Shown here: piece by piece, positions 1-21,843 of the stretch
Numbering within the stretch: position 1 is the first letter of the stretch
How the letters are laid out: every line of letters starts with the position of its first letter
Assembly: GCA_013166775.1 (NCBI GenBank)
Contig: JABLTJ010000042.1
Coordinates: 1-22,368, forward strand
DNA length: 22,368 nucleotides
Direction of reading: 5' to 3'
Source: Promethearchaeati archaeon
GTDB lineage: Archaea > Asgardarchaeota > Heimdallarchaeia > Heimdallarchaeales > Heimdallarchaeaceae
Translations under genes and position numbers: made by a program
Notes under the pieces: generated by a model
Database searches by the model: none
What the model saw: only the letters and a program-made list of their open reading frames with translations
What the model was told of the DNA's origin: nothing

Positions 1-68
1 GCTCCATCCAGCCTCCATTGATTAATGATGTACCTGTAGTGAGCAACAAGGTCCCTTGAGGCGCGCTT

Positions 69-80
69 AAAGATTTAAAT
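69..80 (+). promoter_or_regulatory. Archaeal BRE/TATA-like element of the GC-rich ATPase gene
   Basis: AAAGATTTAAAT about 30 nt upstream of ATG 111, within otherwise GC-richer DNA. Confidence 0.4.
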
Positions 81-110
81 TCGAAGGTCCTCTTACTAGA
101 CCGTTGTTTA

Positions 111-1292
111 ATGGAACTCAAAGAATTCAAGCCACGAGACATTAGTCTATCCGAGGACTACGTAGGGTTCCCATCGATCCACGAGGAGCTACGCGACATC
201 GTGAACTATCTCGGACACCTAGTCAGGCTGACCCAGGACGGGAAGGACGACTACAGGAGGATGCTGGCTGAGGCCGAGAGCGGCTCACTGTTCCTGGGGC
301 GGACGGGGGCTGGGAAGACCCACGCGCTCCACTGCGTCGTGAACGAGGCCACAAAGCTACTGAGTTCTCTATCAAAGATATCCTTACAGAAAATTAGTCT
401 CAAGTATAATTGTAGTATAGTTGATACTTCAAAATATGAAATCCTTTTGTTTAAAGGAAATAATCAAAGCTGTAAACAGAATTCATTGCTTAACTCTATA
501 AAGAACTTGGAGAACACATTTTTCCTTGATGCGATTGAATTAGTAAATGAACTAAAAAGAGATAAAAGAATAGAATTTGAAAGCCCAAAGCATGAAATAC
601 TAAAAGAACTGTTCCCGTCTCATAGCATAATAGTCGATTATGATAAACACTCCAAAAAGGATAGCAACAGCGTAGTAATTACAGCAAGAGAGACAAGGAT
701 TGAAGAAGCTTCATCTGTGGAAGATGAAGAAGTATTCAGTGAAGAAGAAATCAAATATCTTCAAGAAGATCTTATTCAAGAAACAATTGCTGAAGAAGAA
801 AGTGAAGAAGAAAAAATACAAAAATCAATGGTTAAAGAAGTTCTACTCAAAGAACTAGATTTCTCTATTGATTCTTTTCTTACAACTGCTAGGGAATATT
901 ATAAGAAAGGAATTGAAAAGAATCTGGAAAGTAGTTTTGCTGTAAAAACTAATACATTTCTTAAATTTGTGCATCTCTTTTGTGACAAAAAGGACATACT
1001 ATTTTTTTATCCCTCTTACTCTTACTTACTCAAAATAATCGAGTTCTTAGATGTTGAAATGCCTTCATCTGCAGATATTGAGAATTTCATCAATAAATTA
1101 GCAAATGAGTATATTGATGTAGCAATCGCAGAAGAGATTAAAGAAGAGCTTTACGATGCTTTAAAAAAGAAATTCAATAGCAATAATTCATCTAAACAAG
1201 TTTCCGAAAATGATAGCGATTCAAAGATCTCATCAATTCCATTACCACCAGAAAAGAAGGTTGAAAATAAAGAAATTGAGAGAGGTGCTTAA
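111..1292 (+). CDS. Probable chimeric ORF: GC-rich AAA+-like ATPase N-terminus (111-~360) fused in frame to the 3' part of an AT-rich acidic hypothetical protein
   Basis: Walker A LFLGRTGAGKT is present but no Walker B follows. Hand count gives 114/180 GC at 181-360 versus 32/120 at 361-480. The C-terminal part is E-rich and abuts the next gene. Confidence 0.6.
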   Translation: MELKEFKPRDISLSEDYVGFPSIHEELRDIVNYLGHLVRLTQDGKDDYRRMLAEAESGSLFLGRTGAGKTHALHCVVNEATKLLSSLSKISLQKISLKYNCSIVDTSKYEILLFKGNNQSCKQNSLLNSIKNLENTFFLDAIELVNELKRDKRIEFESPKHEILKELFPSHSIIVDYDKHSKKDSNSVVITARETRIEEASSVEDEEVFSEEEIKYLQEDLIQETIAEEESEEEKIQKSMVKEVLLKELDFSIDSFLTTAREYYKKGIEKNLESSFAVKTNTFLKFVHLFCDKKDILFFYPSYSYLLKIIEFLDVEMPSSADIENFINKLANEYIDVAIAEEIKEELYDALKKKFNSNNSSKQVSENDSDSKISSIPLPPEKKVENKEIERGA

Positions 1293-1305
1293 GATTATTG
1301 AAGAC

Positions 1306-1950
1306 ATGTTTTTCTTGAACATTATTGAATTCTATTTAAAATTCTGGTTGATCTCATTGTTCATTAGATGGATAATTTCCTTTCTACCAGGGAAAATATC
1401 AGACGTTATAAGATTTGTTGGGAATCTAATTAGGTTTCCCATAAAGAGATTTTTCTACTGGGTATATGGAGTTCCGGTAATAGAAACAGATTTTGAAAAA
1501 TCAGTTTTCAAAACTGAAGAACTTAGGGATTTTGATTGTAGAGTAACATCCAATATTCTTGCACCTTTATTCATTCAATCTTATGTTGGATCTTTTGTCT
1601 ATTACTGGTCTCAATATTTGTATGCAGAAAATTATCTATGGGTAAGTGTTATACTATATGTTTTAGCTTTTGCTATAATTCTCATGGCAGCTCCAGACTA
1701 TCATGAGTGCGAAGAAATTCTCAAGGTAAGTATCAAATCTATCTTCAAATGGACTGGAAAACTACTTGTTCTTTCACTCCCTATTTACTTCTTAGTGCAC
1801 TTTCTTATTGGCAATGAAGCCCTTGCTCAAGGATTATTCATAATTACAATGTTAATTCCATTTTATCATTATTCATTTCAAGAAAGAGAAGAACCTATGA
1901 TTAAATCTAAAAAAACTAAGATTCTCGAGGTTGATCCTTTTGGAGAGTAA
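1306..1950 (+). CDS. Multi-pass membrane protein resembling archaeal membrane zinc metalloproteases but lacking HExxH
   Basis: About 5-6 hydrophobic segments. VGNLIRFPIKRFFYWVYGVPV...ILAPL...AAPD parallels the family pattern GxxxHExxHxxxxxxxGVxV...APL...PSxxD. The start is more likely ATG 1306 (or GTG 1285) than 1210. Confidence 0.6.
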   Translation: MFFLNIIEFYLKFWLISLFIRWIISFLPGKISDVIRFVGNLIRFPIKRFFYWVYGVPVIETDFEKSVFKTEELRDFDCRVTSNILAPLFIQSYVGSFVYYWSQYLYAENYLWVSVILYVLAFAIILMAAPDYHECEEILKVSIKSIFKWTGKLLVLSLPIYFLVHFLIGNEALAQGLFIITMLIPFYHYSFQEREEPMIKSKKTKILEVDPFGE

Positions 1951-2923
1951 ATATGAACTCAATGAGATGATTGACAAAATAGTTGAAAATGTCGAATCAG
2001 CTCTGGAAAAGCTGGAAAGTAGTATAACTGAAAGAGATAAAAATAAATCTGAAAAACAAAGTTCTTCGGATTCAAAAAAACCTTATCCAAGTATTAGGTA
2101 TCCTATCCCAGAAAATTCAATAATTAAGAAAACAATTGAAGAAGAAAAATTTGAAATTGTTAAACCAGAGAACATTCCAGAGCCATCCAAACCAGTAATT
2201 GAAAGAAAGGAAAAAGCAATAACAAAACAAGAAATTCTTTCAAACATGATAGAAGAAATTTCAGCTGATCAAGAGAAGAAAGAAGAATTTTCAAATGATT
2301 CTGAAACTCATTTTATTGATATTGAAAGAGAAGTAAGAATAATTCATCTCTTCGGTCCCCCAAGTGGAGGTAAGACGACGTTAGCTCTTCAATCAGCAAT
2401 AGAAATTTTACCAAAAGAGACTTTCTACATAATTACTAGTCATTCTACATCAATTTTGAAAAGGATTAAACAGATGGTGGTTAATGATAGATGGAAAGAT
2501 TACCCTGATCTTAAACAACATTTCTTCCCAATCCAGATTCAGAATTTAAAGGAATTACAGCATCAAATCAAACAGATTATTAATTTTAGTTCCCAGGAAA
2601 TTGGAATGGTTGTAATTGATCATATAACAGATCATATTAGAGGAGAGACGCATAAAGAGGAGAATAGAGAGATTCTAAGAAGCATCTTCGAAGATCTTTA
2701 TATGTTAACGAATAAGAAAAAATGCAAAGTACTAGTCATTAATGGGTACGCTTTCAAAGGATCTGCACCAGCTGAAGACTTGATTGAATCATTTTGTGAT
2801 ATGACGATAAAAATAACAAACGAAAGAAATGAATTTGAGGTTGAAATCGATGATCAGATAATCGGTACTTTTCAAATTAATAATTCAGGTCTTGAAAATA
2901 TACACCTCAACATCTATTTTTAG
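1940..2923 (+). CDS. RadB-like RecA-family ATPase with a long charged N-terminal extension
   Basis: Walker A IIHLFGPPSGGKTT, Walker B MVVIDHI, later strand VLVING, and no HhH N-domain. TTG 1940 follows SD-like GAGGTTGATC and overlaps the previous gene's end; the start is uncertain. Confidence 0.75.
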   Translation: MESKYELNEMIDKIVENVESALEKLESSITERDKNKSEKQSSSDSKKPYPSIRYPIPENSIIKKTIEEEKFEIVKPENIPEPSKPVIERKEKAITKQEILSNMIEEISADQEKKEEFSNDSETHFIDIEREVRIIHLFGPPSGGKTTLALQSAIEILPKETFYIITSHSTSILKRIKQMVVNDRWKDYPDLKQHFFPIQIQNLKELQHQIKQIINFSSQEIGMVVIDHITDHIRGETHKEENREILRSIFEDLYMLTNKKKCKVLVINGYAFKGSAPAEDLIESFCDMTIKITNERNEFEVEIDDQIIGTFQINNSGLENIHLNIYF

Positions 2924-2939
2924 TTGAAAAATTTATCCT

Positions 2940-2980
2940 CCTTTAAAAAGTAAATTACATATTATTCTAATAGACATGGC
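2940..2980 (+). promoter_or_regulatory. TATA promoter/leader, copy 1 of the shared motif
   Basis: CCTTTAAAAAGTAAATTA-cat-ATTATT-ctaat-AGACATGGC, with the TATA box about 30 nt upstream of ATG 2976. Nearly identical to 8990-9033. Confidence 0.75.
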
Positions 2981-3461
2981 TTACACAACCGAAAGACAAA
3001 TTGTTGACTTACTAGCGGACAAATGGAAGGGAGAAAATAAACTAGTGGTTAAGGAGTTGGTTATTCCTGTAATAGATCAAGTTTATTATGATAACTATTT
3101 AGAAGGTAGAGAACAGGTAAGGATTGATTTAGCAGCTTATGATACTGTAACAAATCAAGTAATCTTTGTTGAGGCAGAAAACGGATTATATTTACAGCAT
3201 CCTCAAATTTATCTTCCATTTTGTAATGTTCTCTATATTTTATGTCCAGAAGATCAATCTTCTTTCAGAGAAGAGCAATTTAAATGGAGTAAGGAGAAAG
3301 GAATTGGGATAATAGAAGTAAAAAAAACTGGTTTGATTAGTTACTCCCTAGAACCTTTGACCAGGCAGATTTTCCCCAAAGTTCAAGCTTATATCAAATC
3401 AAGATTATTTAGAAGAATCAAGAAGGAGAGTGGTAAAGATTCTAAGATTATTGTCAAGTAA
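2976..3461 (+). CDS. PD-(D/E)xK restriction-endonuclease-fold protein (MmcB-like small nuclease)
   Basis: KE...RIDLAAY...VIFVEAE...YLPFCNVLYILCP...GIGIIEV matches the fold layout, with ExE in place of ExK. Confidence 0.65.
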   Translation: MAYTTERQIVDLLADKWKGENKLVVKELVIPVIDQVYYDNYLEGREQVRIDLAAYDTVTNQVIFVEAENGLYLQHPQIYLPFCNVLYILCPEDQSSFREEQFKWSKEKGIGIIEVKKTGLISYSLEPLTRQIFPKVQAYIKSRLFRRIKKESGKDSKIIVK

Positions 3462-6400: not shown

Positions 6401-6582
6401 GGGAATACACTTCAAAGAAAAAGGAGAAGAAACACCCATCATCTTACGGAGATAGGAGAGGGATAATCGAAAGTATTCAAGAGGAGAGTGGATCCTTTGA
6501 ATTTGATTTGGAAGGGAAGGGGAAAGATTCTCTTGTTAGTCAACTGATACAAAGCATTCGGAAAAAGATCAAAAATGAATGA
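3430..6582 (+). CDS. Degenerate HerA/VirB4-like ATPase with a winged-helix domain and a helical C-terminus
   Basis: ILIAGDNKTRE (decayed Walker A), FIILDP, FNVL, Walker B IYIDDAE, and IIFSTPYPSHLSSQIFDLTHNRIIGNL (TQxP motif region). Winged helix at VKEAISVLETFGYI...TKITPRGKRFL. The start may be ATG 3466. Confidence 0.7.
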   Translation: MVKILRLLSSNKMQKFVGSNKSIYTIKRNEDFTVYAAFIIKPFKQIEEDIKQKKNKFYSKKEEKEKPNPLLSVLNEVKMLNISLHRMFIPGNVKKKENVENTKNQKNKSSSLLNELFEEDNQEIDVSLSFFTLKVWKSYDLSSTFESESSLVDNFVSHLRNELKQKLESVGKVGRVLGDTLEELVRFSTLNHSNFLSKGNRVFSELTKDFVFIEKSEEFQHSFQPGPSVDKRPDSIFSFPSGIETNSSLLVGLTESDLPVGLPKDPSFPILIAGDNKTREIITSKLLEQNGKFIILDPRTNLEFEHRIKTDFTALNLGENFTFNVLTPVTNKNYISEQISNQYLGNFIEIIRSITDVRSDAAALLRDLIDFYINEYQEEQEDVLFPRHDAPVSLDDLYSMLTIEPGGLVITDYQLSTVRALINDIRDPSISENTRINDIRGIEELFSNNMIINFSSQGYKVQKLFIYSFLLQLTVIDQIMNVDEDILIYIDDAELFFSRDIDKTILSHILKKLENSPFKIIFSTPYPSHLSSQIFDLTHNRIIGNLKSANCLKLISSSHGLDKGQFEFIRRLPKNNLLLVREDLMEKPLLLRFFPEDSERYETQPIKQKQEFHRNSKTLKTDDEILTVNIEDFSSLHPVMLEILDKLSTKVNRGINSESLSNLFINWEKNRVKEAISVLETFGYIFFETVDKKGNKGEYWTKITPRGKRFLEKLKFTKVIEVKNKEVKDESVLENTEQNKILEAEIVSDFVESPSIEITSDDSSLVVKKLQKQRRKVRETRDSEKKHRQKLEILNSTLLHVKSLLNNEFEEEVDRMDNFLTALSGYLEEDDSVQELPKEILTSIFQKALSLIDAIQIKSTFGESSTSPTDDEFIEKVIEKELKSDKWQDFDREVFLTEIPELSAISKNQKKITKMVSSEIPKDILQGLELGLDLPKEEFVKLVREAIASLLQIKTMFYPNMDSEKYLDEVSSFFEEAGYPRPFERSKQLLWEYTSKKKEKKHPSSYGDRRGIIESIQEESGSFEFDLEGKGKDSLVSQLIQSIRKKIKNE

Positions 6583-8761
6583 AAGTAACTTTACTCTCTA
6601 CGATTTAACAGATTTTCAAGAAAGGTGCCTTGAGGAATTTGAAGCAGGTAAAGATGTTCTTGCAATAGCTCCAAGTTCTGCAGGAAAGACATTCATAACT
6701 GAACAGTACATTCTGGATTACTTTCAACAAAACTATGGTAAATTTCTCGTTTCTCCAAGAAGAATGAAAGTTGCTTTTGTTTTACCGTACAAATCACTAG
6801 CAATTCAGGAATTCAACTACTTTTCCACCTTAGTAGATCAACGAGGGATTAAGCTCCTACTTGCAGTTGGAGGAGTAGATATCAATGAAGAAGAGCTAGC
6901 TGATGCAAATATCATAATAGGCACTTATGAGAAAATCTTAGTCCTGTTCAAGCGACATCAAATTCTTCGTAAGTATATCAAAATTCTAGTTGTTGATGAA
7001 TTTCATTTTCTAGGTACTGATAGAGGTACGGTTTTAGAAGAAATTATCTTAGAATGGATAAAAATTAGAAATAAAACTCAATTAATATTACTTTCATCAT
7101 CAGTTTCAAATCCTTTAGAGATTTCTGATTGGTTAAATGTTGTTCCAGTAATAGCAACAAAAAGACCGATTCCTATTTCATATTCAGTTGAAGTATCATC
7201 AAATTTCAAGCAATTTATCAAACAGCTGAAGAGCACAGGAAAACAGATTATGGTTTTCTGTCATTCTAGATCAGAAGCTGAAAATCTAGCAGACAAACTC
7301 AGTAAAGAATTTCCAAAAAAAATGGAAACGCAAATTGATCAAATAATCTATAGTTCCCTTGCTAACATAGATGATGACAAAGTTCGTGAAACCATACAAA
7401 ATGCATTTTTCCCACCTCTCCTAAAAGACACAACACAAAGAGGTGTTGCATATCATCATGCTGGATTATCAGGAATTGTGCGACTACTGATTGAAAATCT
7501 GTTTCTTCAAAATGAGTTAGATATCTTAGTCTCAACTTCGACTTTAGCTGCTGGAATAAATCTTCCAGCTGATATAGCAGTTTACACAATAAAACATAAG
7601 AAAATAGATGCAGAAAATAATCTAGTTTTCCAAACGTTGGGTAGAGCTGGAAGATTGGGCTTTCGAAGCAAAGGAGAAGGATTAGTAGTTGTTACAAATG
7701 AAAGAATGAAAGTTAAAACTGAAAAACGATTATTTGAGGATGAAGGAGGAAATTTCAGACCTATTTTTCATTCAATAGAGAGTAAATTAGGGGATTATGA
7801 CTTCCTAATCAAATTCTATCTTGAAAGTTTGCATTATTCTGAAAAAACTTATTCAAGTAATTTAGCTCATCTTATTGAACCAATTAATGATTCATTTTGG
7901 TTCTATCAGAATAAAACAAAATTAATGAGACATTTGATGGATTATGAAATTCTACAAGCGTTTTTTTCTTCTACAGAATCCAATTTGAACCCAGAAGAAA
8001 TAATCGATTTTTATCAACGATTTGATAAGACACGTAAAATTAAGAAAACAAGAATGGAAATTCAATCGATAGAAGGACTGAACAAGGCTGCAATAGTTGC
8101 TAACATAAGAGAGCAGTCAAGATTATTTCAGATTTACTTATCTCCTTCAAGACGAAGTTGTACTTGTCAAAGTAAACATTCCAATTTTATCTGTAAACAT
8201 CAAAGATATCTCTTGAAAGAGTACCCAGAGGCTCAAGAAAGATGGTTAAGTACGTATGGGATATTTGATTTTCTCATTAAAGAAGGATTTATTGTTAAAT
8301 CAGCAGGAGAAAATTTTAATTTAACCTATATGGGTCAAATAACAGCTCAGTATTTTATCCATCCCTATGATTTTCTAGATTATCTGGAATTCTGTGGCAC
8401 CAACAAAAACATAACTATTTCTCAATACTTAAAGCAATTCATTACTAGAGATAAGAAGATTAAACAAGAAATCAAAGCTAATGAATTATCCTCTCTACAA
8501 GCAATAAAATTAGCTCAAAGCATAGTTAATGGGGACAATGTTAAACAAATGTGTGAGAGATATAACGTAAGTGACAGTTTCATTGATGATTGGAAAGAAA
8601 CTATCTACAGATTCATGAGAATGTTTCAATCGATTCACTATTTTACAGGAAACAAAGATGAAGCAGAAAGAATAGTGAAATGGATAGAGAACAGTATAGC
8701 TTTTAGAGAGAAGGATATTGTTAAATTGAAAGGAGAAGAAATGAGTATGAGTTCTACATAA
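6575..8761 (+). CDS. Ski2/Hel308-like SF2 DExH helicase with an inserted SWIM zinc finger
   Basis: Q motif DFQ, I APSSAGKT, Ia PYKSLA, Ib TYEK, II DEFH, III SSS, IV FCHSR, YHHAGL, V TSTLAAGINLP, VI QTLGRAGR. SWIM CTC-x8-CKH at 8159-8200. Overlaps the previous gene by 8 nt. Confidence 0.9.
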   Translation: MNESNFTLYDLTDFQERCLEEFEAGKDVLAIAPSSAGKTFITEQYILDYFQQNYGKFLVSPRRMKVAFVLPYKSLAIQEFNYFSTLVDQRGIKLLLAVGGVDINEEELADANIIIGTYEKILVLFKRHQILRKYIKILVVDEFHFLGTDRGTVLEEIILEWIKIRNKTQLILLSSSVSNPLEISDWLNVVPVIATKRPIPISYSVEVSSNFKQFIKQLKSTGKQIMVFCHSRSEAENLADKLSKEFPKKMETQIDQIIYSSLANIDDDKVRETIQNAFFPPLLKDTTQRGVAYHHAGLSGIVRLLIENLFLQNELDILVSTSTLAAGINLPADIAVYTIKHKKIDAENNLVFQTLGRAGRLGFRSKGEGLVVVTNERMKVKTEKRLFEDEGGNFRPIFHSIESKLGDYDFLIKFYLESLHYSEKTYSSNLAHLIEPINDSFWFYQNKTKLMRHLMDYEILQAFFSSTESNLNPEEIIDFYQRFDKTRKIKKTRMEIQSIEGLNKAAIVANIREQSRLFQIYLSPSRRSCTCQSKHSNFICKHQRYLLKEYPEAQERWLSTYGIFDFLIKEGFIVKSAGENFNLTYMGQITAQYFIHPYDFLDYLEFCGTNKNITISQYLKQFITRDKKIKQEIKANELSSLQAIKLAQSIVNGDNVKQMCERYNVSDSFIDDWKETIYRFMRMFQSIHYFTGNKDEAERIVKWIENSIAFREKDIVKLKGEEMSMSST

Positions 8762-18115: not shown

Positions 18116-18990
18116 AACTAAAAGAACTGCCTCATAAAAGTCATTTTACTGAAGGAGATCGTGCTTGTGCAGGTTGTATGGGATCAAATATAGCTATTAA
18201 TGTTATGAGAATTCTTGGAAAGAAAACTGTAGTTAGTGTCCCTCCATCTTGTATGAGTGTTTTTGGTGGAACTTTCCCAAATATCAATTGGGATGTTCCT
18301 TATTTCCACATGCAGTTTGCGAATACAGCTTCAACAATAACAGGTATAGCTCGCGCATTAAAAGTACAAGGAAAGGAGGATATAGTTGTTCTTGGTATGG
18401 CAGGTGACGGAGCCACTGCTGACATGGGATTAGCTTCTTTATCAGGAGCTGCTCATAGAGATGAAGACATTCTCTATATTTGTTATAATAATGAAGCATA
18501 TGAAAACACAGGAATTCAAGCGTCAGGTGTTTCTCCTATTGGTGTCTGGTCATCAACTACTCCAAAAGGTAATCAATATGCCCCCAAAGATATCCCTAGA
18601 ATCCTTATCGCACATGAGGCAACTTACGTAGCAACTGCGTCTACTTCTCATATTCAGGATTTTATAAACAAGGTTGAAAAAGCAAAGAAACTCCGAGGTT
18701 TCAGGTATATAGAAGTTTTATCAGCTTGTACTCCAGGCTGGAAAATTGATTCTCATCTTGGTCCTGAACTAGTAAAAGAAGCTGTCGAAAGTGGATATTG
18801 GCTGTTAATAGAGTATGAAGACAGAAAATTGAAAATGAATGTCAAGCCTAAATTCACTGGTTTGAAAGAGTTTATTTCCAAACAAGGAAGATTCAACGAC
18901 ATCTCGGACGAACAATTGGAAAATCTGAGAAAACAGATTGAGAGAAAATATCATATTTACAAAAATATGGAAAATAACAACCACTTATGA
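18112..18990 (+). CDS. porB: 2-oxoacid:ferredoxin oxidoreductase beta subunit (TPP-binding)
   Basis: ACAGC plus further Fe-S Cys residues, TPP motif GDG...NNEAYENTGIQ. ATGA overlap with the alpha gene. Confidence 0.9.
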   Translation: MKLKELPHKSHFTEGDRACAGCMGSNIAINVMRILGKKTVVSVPPSCMSVFGGTFPNINWDVPYFHMQFANTASTITGIARALKVQGKEDIVVLGMAGDGATADMGLASLSGAAHRDEDILYICYNNEAYENTGIQASGVSPIGVWSSTTPKGNQYAPKDIPRILIAHEATYVATASTSHIQDFINKVEKAKKLRGFRYIEVLSACTPGWKIDSHLGPELVKEAVESGYWLLIEYEDRKLKMNVKPKFTGLKEFISKQGRFNDISDEQLENLRKQIERKYHIYKNMENNNHL

Positions 18991-20594: not shown

Positions 20595-21299
20595 ATGAGA
20601 CTTTCTGGAACATTTTGTAAAGCAAGATTCATTAGAAGACCTAATAGATTTCTCTGCTATGTTCGTTTAGAAGAATCAAGCCAGGAAGTTAAAGCTCATG
20701 TACCAGATCCAGGAAGATTAAAAGAACTGTTTACTCCTGAAGCTGAGCTAATAGTTAGAAAAGAAAATAAGAAGGATCGAAAAACAGCATTTACTGTTGT
20801 TGGCATAAAAACAGGTAAAATCTGGGTAAATATAGAATCTACTTTCACAAATCGAATCTTTGAAGAAGAATATGAAAAACTTTCCGAATTCAATGATTAC
20901 AAAATTGAGAAAGCTGAATTTACTTTTGGTTCCAGTCGTTTCGATTTTCTAATGAAAAACAAAAAAACCAACAAAAAAGCCTTAGTTGAAGTAAAAGGAG
21001 CTACACTTGTAAACGAAGGATTAGCTCTCTTTCCTGATGCACCTACTACTAGAGGAATCAAGCATTTACGAGGATTAACAGAGGCCTTAAAACAAGGGTA
21101 TGAATCTTTTATTATTTTCATTATAAAACGAGAAGATGCTACAAGTTTTTCACCAAATCAAGAAACAGATCCTTTGTTTTCGCAAGAACTTCAATATGCA
21201 AACGAAAAAGGAGTAAGAATATTTGCTTTCAATTGCTATTATGATCCTTTAGATATCAAAGAGATCGGAATCTTGAGAAGGGTATCAACTAATATCTAG
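20595..21299 (+). CDS. sfsA: SfsA family DNA/RNA nuclease
   Basis: RPNRF, HVPDPGRLKEL, SRFDFL, VEVKG, FPDAPTTRGIKHL. Confidence 0.93.
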   Translation: MRLSGTFCKARFIRRPNRFLCYVRLEESSQEVKAHVPDPGRLKELFTPEAELIVRKENKKDRKTAFTVVGIKTGKIWVNIESTFTNRIFEEEYEKLSEFNDYKIEKAEFTFGSSRFDFLMKNKKTNKKALVEVKGATLVNEGLALFPDAPTTRGIKHLRGLTEALKQGYESFIIFIIKREDATSFSPNQETDPLFSQELQYANEKGVRIFAFNCYYDPLDIKEIGILRRVSTNI

Positions 21300-21306
21300 G
21301 ATTTTA

Positions 21307-21843
21307 TCAACAGAATATTCCTTCCAAGCAATAAACAGACAATTTTTCTGTCTCTGGACAGTTCTTAGCTAAGCCACATTGTTGACATAGTGAGGATATG
21401 TTTTCCTCTGAGAGTGTCTCTCTTTTTTGATGTAGTTCATATAGAAGTTTGAGATATTTTCCTTCCATATTCCTTGGGATATCTTCTAGGTTTTCGAATC
21501 CGTACCATTGATATAGTCCTTTATCTCCTTTCGCAGAATTACAGTTTTTACACAACATAATATAATTCTCTCTATTATCTGATAATTCAGTAACAGAGGA
21601 CAACATTTTTTCCACTGAGAGTTTTCTGACCTCACCACAGAAGGCACAGCTTTGGGTTATTTCCAAAGTAGATTTAAATTCTTTTAATGCATTCTCCCAA
21701 GTTATTTCCTCATTTTGCAGTTTTTGATAATAATTCCCTATAAACTGCAAATTACTCCTTCCATAACCTGAAGAATGAGATATTATTTTTGCATATTGCC
21801 AGAAAATAAGATCCTTAATACTTCTGATATTTTGGGGAAGCAT
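21307..21843 (-). CDS. Zinc-binding HNH-like protein, probably catalytically degenerate
   Basis: CAFCG...LCKNCNSAKG is the HNH Zn scaffold. The expected EH reads EK. A second Cys cluster CQQC-x5-C-x9-C follows. GGAGA RBS upstream. Confidence 0.7.
   Translation of the reverse strand: MLPQNIRSIKDLIFWQYAKIISHSSGYGRSNLQFIGNYYQKLQNEEITWENALKEFKSTLEITQSCAFCGEVRKLSVEKMLSSVTELSDNRENYIMLCKNCNSAKGDKGLYQWYGFENLEDIPRNMEGKYLKLLYELHQKRETLSEENISSLCQQCGLAKNCPETEKLSVYCLEGIFC

Follow-up and report, generated by a model that had tools for sequence, protein, structure and literature searches.

What does a cluster of cysteine and histidine residues do in the middle of a Hel308-like DNA helicase, and is it connected with the Rad51-family genes that lie beside it? 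The question is raised by a 22,368-nucleotide (nt) stretch of an Asgard archaeal genome from the Heimdallarchaeaceae (assembly GCA_013166775.1, contig JABLTJ010000042.1, positions 1 to 22,368), which is called the window throughout. It is low in G+C (approximately 31–39%), and its close homologues carry the names Heimdallarchaeota or Heimdallarchaeaceae. An earlier, sequence-only reading had proposed that a SWIM zinc finger is inserted in the winged-helix (WH) region of the helicase, and that the fusion could be an archaeal counterpart of a HELQ/Shu/Rad51-paralog mediator. Here, we establish the architecture, conservation, distribution and gene neighbourhood of this helicase, which represents an apparently undescribed type, Hel308-like and SWIM-bearing, that is found in most Asgard lineages. 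On a slender balance of probability it is an intact Hel308 paralog that serves as the motor of a recombination module, with the SWIM finger as its docking surface.

The Hel308-type motor and its inserted module

Hel308 moves 3'-to-5' along single-stranded DNA by means of a ring of RecA1, RecA2, winged-helix and ratchet domains, and its domain 5 acts as a brake and annealing element. All the sequence strings on which the earlier reading was based are present in the 728-amino-acid (aa) translation of the window helicase, and the span that it singled out (7890–8370) corresponds to residues 439–599. Pfam assigns the domains DEAD (residues 12–178) and Helicase_C (residues 283–362), and all 14 orthologues share the helicase motifs GKT, DEFH, SSS and QxxGRAGR without change, so that the motor looks active as judged from its motifs. 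An AlphaFold model computed with the orthologue alignment as input reaches a predicted local distance difference test (pLDDT) score of 84.7 and a predicted template modelling (TM) score, pTM, of 0.85. Foldseek matches this model to Hel308 (2va8) at E 3e-29, and VIA-align gives Z 25–28 to Brr2, the POLQ helicase domain, Hjm and Hel308, with approximately 555–580 of the 728 residues aligned. Pfam, the orthologue alignment, Foldseek and VIA-align thus agree on a Ski2-like ring of RecA1, RecA2, WH and ratchet domains with DExH motifs, and the protein is an intact DExH helicase with a Hel308/Ski2 fold, as had been proposed.

The architecture was aligned to canonical Hel308 proteins from the same genome (a paralog), Sulfolobales, Pyrococcus and Diapherotrites. 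An insertion of approximately 105–120 residues (456–560 in the window protein) splits the WH domain between the WH helix ‘TFxxxQ’ and the WH segment ‘L..L...GFI...T..G...lYi.P’ of canonical Hel308; the flanking strings in the window protein are FWFYQ (residues 441–445, nt 7895–7909) and FLIKEGFI...YFIHP (residues 566–597). Domain 4, the ratchet, is shorter by approximately 30 residues than in canonical Hel308, and the window protein ends where domain 5 (GIGRxRAR) of canonical Hel308 starts. This helix-hairpin-helix (HhH) domain 5 is missing in all aligned SWIM-family members, and Pfam scans give no HHH match in the window protein or in SWIM-type members of four other lineages. The placement of the cluster inside the WH region is confirmed by the Hel308 alignment and the AlphaFold model, and the shortened C terminus without HhH domain 5 by the alignment and by the contrast in Pfam with the genome’s own canonical Hel308; both had been part of the sequence-only reading. 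Compared with Hel308/Hjm (2P6R, 2VA8, 2ZJ2), the window protein has the same RecA1–RecA2–WH–ratchet architecture with intact DExH motifs, and belongs to a sister clade, but it differs in the SWIM insertion of approximately 105 residues, the shorter ratchet and the lack of domain 5. The difference is also seen in the NCBIfam Hel308 models (NF040935), which cover residues 25–433 only and score 171 bits, below the equivalog cut-off of 1200 bits.

The inserted cluster, AIVANIREQSRLFQIYLSPSRRSCTC-x8-CKH, ends at H542 and carries the SWIM ligand signature CxC-x(n)-CxH in the form C529-x-C531-x8-C540-x-H542 (C529/C531 at nt 8159–8167, C540/H542 at nt 8192–8200). C529, C531, C540 and H542 are invariant in the 14 orthologues, down to 38% identity, and the four Cys/His positions are the sole invariant columns across 47 family members at 10–25% identity, with spacers of 6–21 residues. 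In Pfam SWIM (PF04434, gathering cut-off 19.6 bits) the spacing between CxC and CxH is usually 6–25. By our own estimate, CxC-x(4-25)-CxH is expected by chance approximately 3e-4 times per protein of such composition. A chance origin is excluded given this low expectation, the scarcity of cysteines in the protein and the recurrence of the motif at the same place in a family in which the other columns vary.

When the window segment is searched in isolation, its top Pfam match is SWIM. The orthologues P0022 (25.5 bits) and P0024 (20.5 bits) exceed the Pfam SWIM cut-off, the family is matched at E ≤ 0.01 in 10 of the 47 members (best 6.7e-8), and some members hold a textbook-like SWIM, such as CSCPDF...CKH. 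Pfam scans run on full-length proteins do not report SWIM, and current annotations as ‘DEAD/DEAH box helicase’ therefore hide the architecture. Both the full and the isolated model show a topology that fits SWIM, with four strands (494–529) and a helix from 541 that starts at CxH, and the pLDDT of the module is 81–94 when it is modelled within the whole protein and 82 when it is modelled alone. Shape matches in the ESM Atlas include a FAR1-type SWIM (TM 0.60, 66 residues), an SNF2-associated SWIM (TM 0.59, 61 residues) and small SWIM clusters, and a profile search of the PDB with the SWIM alignment returns the SWIM of MEKK1 as its best match, which is weak (E 0.14). Several results weigh against the identification: the isolated segment scores 16.2 bits (E 0.0078), under the 19.6-bit cut-off; Foldseek of the isolated model against the PDB finds nothing at E<0.3; and in a wide VIA-align comparison of the same model the top score is Z 4.1, ZSWIM8 reaching 3.8, level with unrelated chains. 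We nevertheless accept the Cys/His cluster as a SWIM finger on sequence grounds, namely the top Pfam match of the segment and the conservation in 14 orthologues and 47 relatives, with zinc binding as a prediction, and the earlier identification thus stands. Longer, fused forms of the SWIM-plus-WH region were not found in a search of limited sensitivity.

A SWIM clade among the Ski2-like helicases

The motif lies at the equivalent place in dozens of helicase homologues of 650–1,100 aa, as found by a regular-expression scan of the matches from two protein searches. Named members come from Heimdall-, Loki- (Promethearchaeota), Hel-, Baldr- and Hermodarchaea, ‘Asgardarchaeia’ and one Firmicutes metagenome-assembled genome (MAG). 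The protein from this MAG (P0043, 815 aa, Fermentithermobacillaceae) is the sole non-Asgard member among the named ones, and could reflect transfer or a binning error. A survey of Asgard genomes with a SWIM-plus-WH profile gave strong full-length matches, defined as E below approximately 1e-13 over the full profile in open reading frames (ORFs) of 700–900 aa, in approximately 245 of 399 genomes (counted from a table) and in most family-level groups. Some Asgard genomes have two SWIM-helicase copies.

Trees were built from helicase-core columns, with the SWIM segment left out. The SWIM helicases form one clade (FastTree support 96 with 43 rows; support of 94 in the Shimodaira–Hasegawa-like approximate likelihood-ratio test, SH-aLRT, in IQ-TREE with 24/24 rows) that groups with canonical archaeal Hel308 as its sister, and the window protein falls outside the canonical Hel308 clade. 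Sec63-type (Brr2/ASCC3-like) cassettes fall apart from the Hel308-plus-SWIM group, and three HELQ/POLQ-type sequences branch outside it, a placement that involves few sequences, long branches and weak deep support. Within the SWIM clade, the Heimdallarchaeaceae helicases sit on a long stem of approximately 0.9–1.1 changes per column, which suggests accelerated evolution where the six-gene operon described below arose.

The genome that contains the window has three different Ski2-like helicases, since besides the window copy it encodes a canonical Hel308 paralog on contig C2 (750 aa, with HTH_61, Helicase_dom4_arc and HHH_5 at residues 662–714) and a further Ski2-like gene on contig C102. The latter (72238–76263, an 871-aa ORF) has an N-terminal CWYC...CDYC, a CxxC..CxxC finger, and is probably of the ASH-Ski2 type; for the window protein that identity is ruled out, as it has no N-terminal Cys cluster. 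The window helicase is not the Hel308 orthologue, given the complete canonical Hel308 elsewhere in the genome and the separate SWIM clade, and is probably not that of HELQ, as HELQ/POLQ sequences lie elsewhere in the trees. HELQ also differs in having domain 5 and no SWIM finger.

According to a 2024 survey, the Ski2-like helicases of archaea comprise only Hel308, ASH-Ski2 and Brr2-like groups (PMC10946056), and a 2026 review of HELQ/Hel308 makes no mention of a zinc finger (PMC13623763). The SWIM clade is therefore an unrecognised fourth archaeal Ski2-like type. A search of the literature on SWIM in connection with Hel308, Asgard or Ski2-like helicases likewise found no description of a SWIM helicase.

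Conserved neighbours of the SWIM helicases

The neighbourhood analysis compared 46 SWIM-helicase loci, each reaching 10 kb to either side, with 20 control windows from five complete genomes. A RecA-family ORF, either RadA-like or small and RadB-like, lies within 10 kb at 24 of the 46 loci and in none of the 20 controls, and the linked loci span 12 of the 13 sampled family codes and two named lineages; the background in the genome of the window is 16 RecA-family ORFs per 3.85 Mb. The linkage to Rad51-family genes that had been noticed in the window is hence real and conserved well past it. The short RecA-like genes near SWIM helicases of other lineages share the subfamily of the RadB-like gene of the window (hhalign E 1e-39, against 1e-9 to RadA), and Thor-type genomes have a same-strand cluster of a RadA-like gene, an XPD-like gene, an 800-aa protein, the SWIM helicase, two RecA-like ATPases and FEN1.

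Thor-type genomes G311, G334 and G318 contain two SWIM paralogs (loci L058, L060 and L062 versus L063–L065), of which a single one belongs to the RadA/XPD/FEN1 cluster; the second is found in another conserved setting that lacks RecA-family genes. As most Loki-type loci and this second Thor paralog have no RecA-family gene within 10 kb, the link to RecA paralogs is frequent and not universal, which counts against the recombination-module reading that we favour. Loki-type loci hold a gene that is transcribed divergently from the SWIM helicase (for example L049:5925-8105), whose product of 530–830 aa has a RadA-like N-terminal HhH domain. A hidden RecA ATPase is ruled out for this neighbour, which has no Walker A or recognisable ATPase core and aligns over 62 columns only (hhalign E 1.6e-12). 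No further homologies between other Loki and Thor neighbours and the Heimdall operon genes were found with hhalign.

The most constant neighbour of the SWIM helicases is an inactive HerA/VirB4-like protein, with homologues near them across lineages. Neighbours of 800–1,260 aa in Thor, Loki and other lineages are homologous to the 1,050-aa protein of the window (hhalign probability 96–97%, E 4e-10), and the HerA-like gene overlaps or abuts the start of the helicase gene both here, where the helicase start and the stop of the upstream ORF overlap by 8 nt, and in Thor-type operons. Its Atlas features match DUF87/HerA/VirB4/CedB clusters at 0.94. The Walker A position reads G-x4-R-E, with GK[ST] in 0 of 26 members, and since the P-loop is degenerate in all of them the protein would be a scaffold and not a motor. 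In HerA–NurA, PINA–Hjm and Ced/Ted, HerA/VirB4-type ATPases work with nucleases, Hel308 or DNA import. Here, too, such a protein is encoded beside a DNA helicase and a small protein of nuclease size, its probable partners; for Hjm, an interaction with the PINA ATPase has been reported (PMC10946056). The arrangement differs from these systems in the degenerate P-loop and in an operon without NurA, Mre11 or Rad50.

In five genera of the Heimdallarchaeaceae, six genes form an operon that ends with the helicase gene, in the order membrane-anchored protein, membrane protein, RadB-like ATPase, protein of approximately 160 aa, protein of approximately 1,050 aa and helicase (Table 1). Gene A is truncated by the contig start; its orthologues have 470–545 aa with N-terminal membrane segments. 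Gene B encodes a polytopic membrane protein, and neither A nor B has a Pfam or PDB sequence match. A Walker-A-like GRTGAGKT in gene A of the window is not among the invariant columns of a five-sequence orthologue alignment. The RadB-like protein has its ATPase core at residues 125–330, following a low-complexity N-terminal extension, with the Walker A Lys and Walker B Asp conserved, and the spacing between its gene and the helicase, approximately 5.7 kb, is constant in at least 13 genomes of the family. The 161-aa protein is kept in the operon, adjoins the SWIM helicase in one further lineage and has no Pfam or PDB sequence match.

Downstream of the helicase, the gene that the sequence-only reading took for RadA is indeed of the RecA family according to Pfam Rad51, but it is missing in the orthologous operons of two other genera and scores only 221 bits with NCBIfam RadA, below the cut-off of 259 bits. 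The four other RadA-like genes of the genome (C25:3157-4440, C2:102174-103319, C87:10493-11506 and C1:97080-98423) score 342–456 bits, and the window gene, the lowest of the five, is therefore a divergent paralog. It is followed, 11 nt further on, by a gene for a 2,118-aa protein with Big_1/Big_3_5 immunoglobulin (Ig)-like repeats (10231–16587). The genes further downstream (16916–18990, 20595–21299 and 21307–21843) look unrelated to the cluster, and encode 2-oxoacid:ferredoxin oxidoreductase alpha/beta-like proteins (POR_N/PFOR_II, TPP_enzyme_C), an SfsA-like protein and an HNH endonuclease.

Table 1 Features of the helicase gene and its neighbours in the window (residue numbers in brackets).
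Feature	Position (nt)	Strand	Basis or remark
Operon genes A (111–1292) and B (1210–1950)	1..1950	+	Operon kept in L001, L003, L004 and L043
RadB-like short RecA-family paralog	1931..2923	+	NCBIfam RadB E 1.6e-13, below cut-off
161-aa conserved protein	2976..3461	+	Invariant D51, E66, E68, N69 and H75
HerA/VirB4-like protein, 1,050 aa	3430..6582	+	Degenerate P-loop ILIAGDNKTRE; winged-helix-like segment; weak RPA_C match
SWIM-Hel308-like helicase gene	6575..8761	+	728 aa, no internal stops; ORF list and translation
RecA1 and RecA2 motor domains (1–400)	6575..7774	+	GKT (K38), DEFH (141–144), SSS (174–175) and QxxGRAGR (353–360) intact
N-terminal half of WH domain 3 (404–455)	7784..7939	+	Aligns with canonical Hel308 WH start; model helices 408–450
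Helical linker, first part of insertion (456–490)	7940..8044	+	No Hel308 counterpart; model helices 456–464 and 473–486
SWIM zinc-finger module (491–557)	8045..8245	+	Four beta strands, then helices; invariant ligands; Pfam SWIM matches
C-terminal half of WH domain, beta-hairpin wing (558–596)	8246..8362	+	Hel308 alignment; helix 563–569, strands 573–576 and 580–583, helix 585–592
Ratchet domain 4 (597–712)	8363..8710	+	Approximately 30 residues short; domain 5 does not follow
Divergent full-length RadA paralog	9008..10219	+	Probable start 9029; Pfam Rad51 E 9e-56

The membrane and surface-protein genes in these clusters suggest that the module may serve DNA uptake or exchange more than general repair, which counts against the reading that we favour. 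The helicase would then belong to an envelope-associated apparatus like Ced/Ted, in which the recombination enzymes process incoming DNA. The first two genes of the Heimdall operon encode a membrane-anchored and a polytopic membrane protein, the cluster is flanked here and in L001 and L003 by a giant surface protein with Ig repeats (2,115–2,121 aa), and the large partner is like VirB4, HerA and CedB in its Atlas features. However, the P-loop of that partner is dead in 26 of 26 members, which therefore cannot power transport, and the membrane genes are missing from the clusters of some lineages. We regard an uptake apparatus as possible but doubtful; such a role would apply to the cluster as a whole and does not conflict with the helicase as the motor of a recombination module.

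A cluster that defends against viruses by means of a Hachiman-like (HamB-type) helicase is very improbable. PADLOC HamB models do match the window helicase, with up to 118 bits, but the matches are limited to two stretches of the generic helicase core and score lower than the Hel308 models (171 bits). No HamA (DUF1837) or other PADLOC family is found among the neighbours, and the vertical and wide distribution, conserved chromosomal contexts and approximately 1–2 copies per genome are unlike patchy defence islands. With HamB matches on the helicase core only and no HamA nearby, we reject this reading.

Possible roles of the inserted finger

In the reading that we favour, the window helicase is a catalytically intact Hel308 paralog that has kept the ring, lost HhH domain 5 and gained a linker-plus-SWIM module of approximately 105 residues in a loop of the WH domain. 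Its neighbourhood suggests that it is the motor of a recombination module that would also comprise the HerA/VirB4-like protein with its inactive P-loop, translationally coupled upstream, and the short RadB-like ATPase, joined in many lineages by the divergent RadA paralog, the XPD-like helicase and FEN1. By analogy, the SWIM insertion may offer a docking surface for a RecA-family paralog, the HerA-like scaffold or branched DNA, and such docking would guide the motor as it unwinds or remodels recombination intermediates or RadA-type filaments.

The SWIM fingers of Shu2/SWS1 and MEKK1 bind proteins. Since they do so, and since the arch of Mtr4/Ski2 sits in the same domain as the insertion, the most likely role of the SWIM insertion, by analogy, is to dock the motor to a partner. 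The Mtr4/Ski2 arch (KOW) is an accessory module within the WH domain of a Ski2-like helicase and acts there as an adaptor platform (PMC10946056, PMC4267639), although it consists of a helical stalk and KOW where the window protein has a helical linker and SWIM, and these proteins are RNA helicases of the exosome pathway. Another combination of SWIM with an SF2 motor is found in bacterial SNF2 proteins with SNF2_assoc and SWIM (PF08455, PF04434), which give the Atlas shape match at TM 0.59; these belong to the Snf2 translocase family, and their SWIM is N-terminal and not inserted in a WH domain. A co-fold of helicase residues 400–615 with the RadB-like core, made with alignments, scored 0.00; it had no controls and counts neither for nor against binding.

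The finger could instead be a DNA-binding or purely structural zinc element that replaces domain 5 for forked or branched DNA, so that the protein would be a second Hel308 with another substrate preference and no dedicated partner. The loss of domain 5 accompanies the gain of SWIM in every member, the review of HELQ/Hel308 assigns substrate recognition to the domain that bears the insertion (PMC13623763), and the original prediction for SWIM fingers was binding to DNA or protein (PMC5727457). The compact operon, in which genes often overlap and which includes the HerA-like protein and RecA paralogs, speaks instead for a multi-protein machine, and we hold a DNA-binding or purely structural element to be rather unlikely.

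A third possibility, unlikely in our view, is closest to the proposal made from the sequence alone: the finger would bind RecA-family paralogs in the manner of Shu2/SWS1, and the helicase would be an archaeal counterpart or forerunner of the HELQ–BCDX2 and Shu mediators that load or stabilise the recombinase. The part of the proposal that stands is the conserved pairing of SWIM helicases with RecA paralogs. Across Asgard lineages they are tied to RadA paralogs and to one short RecA-like ATPase subfamily, whose member in the window retains its Walker A and B residues, and Shu2/SWS1 and HELQ both bind Rad51 paralogs (PMC6316741, PMC13623763). For Shu2/SWS1 this holds in every organism studied (PMC6316741), and HELQ, the metazoan Hel308 orthologue, binds the BCDX2 paralog complex, which likewise couples a Hel308-type helicase to RecA-family paralogs (PMC13623763).

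What is not supported is the specific likeness to these mediators. Shu2/SWS1 has the extended signature CXC..Xn..CXHXXA with an invariant Ala (PMC6316741), whereas the CXHXXA part is missing here: the window protein reads C-K-H-Q-R-Y, with Tyr at H+3, and Ala is found in 8 of the 47 members. The SWIM profile has no Shu2 match among PDB sequences at E ≤ 1, and beyond the generic SWIM family no sequence link was found between Shu2/SWS1 (ZSWIM7) and the finger of the helicase. The Shu2/SWS1 proteins are small and stand-alone, whereas the SWIM studied here is internal to a 728-aa helicase, and its tie to RecA/Rad51 paralogs is that of a conserved gene neighbourhood. The helicase clusters with archaeal Hel308 and apparently not with HELQ/POLQ, the most constant neighbour is the HerA-like protein and not a RecA paralog, and at many Loki-type loci no RecA-family gene is nearby. 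It is thus quite improbable that the insertion binds the clustered RadA/RadB-like paralogs as a prokaryotic precursor or close analogue of the Shu2/SWS1 and HELQ–BCDX2 mediators; if it did, the logic of the eukaryotic recombinase mediators would already have been assembled in Asgard archaea as a helicase-tethered module.

Hel308/HELQ helicases and Rad51 paralogs govern how homologous recombination turns out, and the SWIM clade bears on their coupling. In Asgard archaea, the closest archaeal relatives of eukaryotes, its genes consistently occur together with those for spare RadA-family proteins and for an inactivated HerA/VirB4-like protein. The SWIM helicases are simple, testable proteins for two questions: in what way a Hel308 motor is retargeted by an accessory module within its WH domain, and whether the partnership of SWIM proteins and Rad51 paralogs in eukaryotes goes back to archaea.

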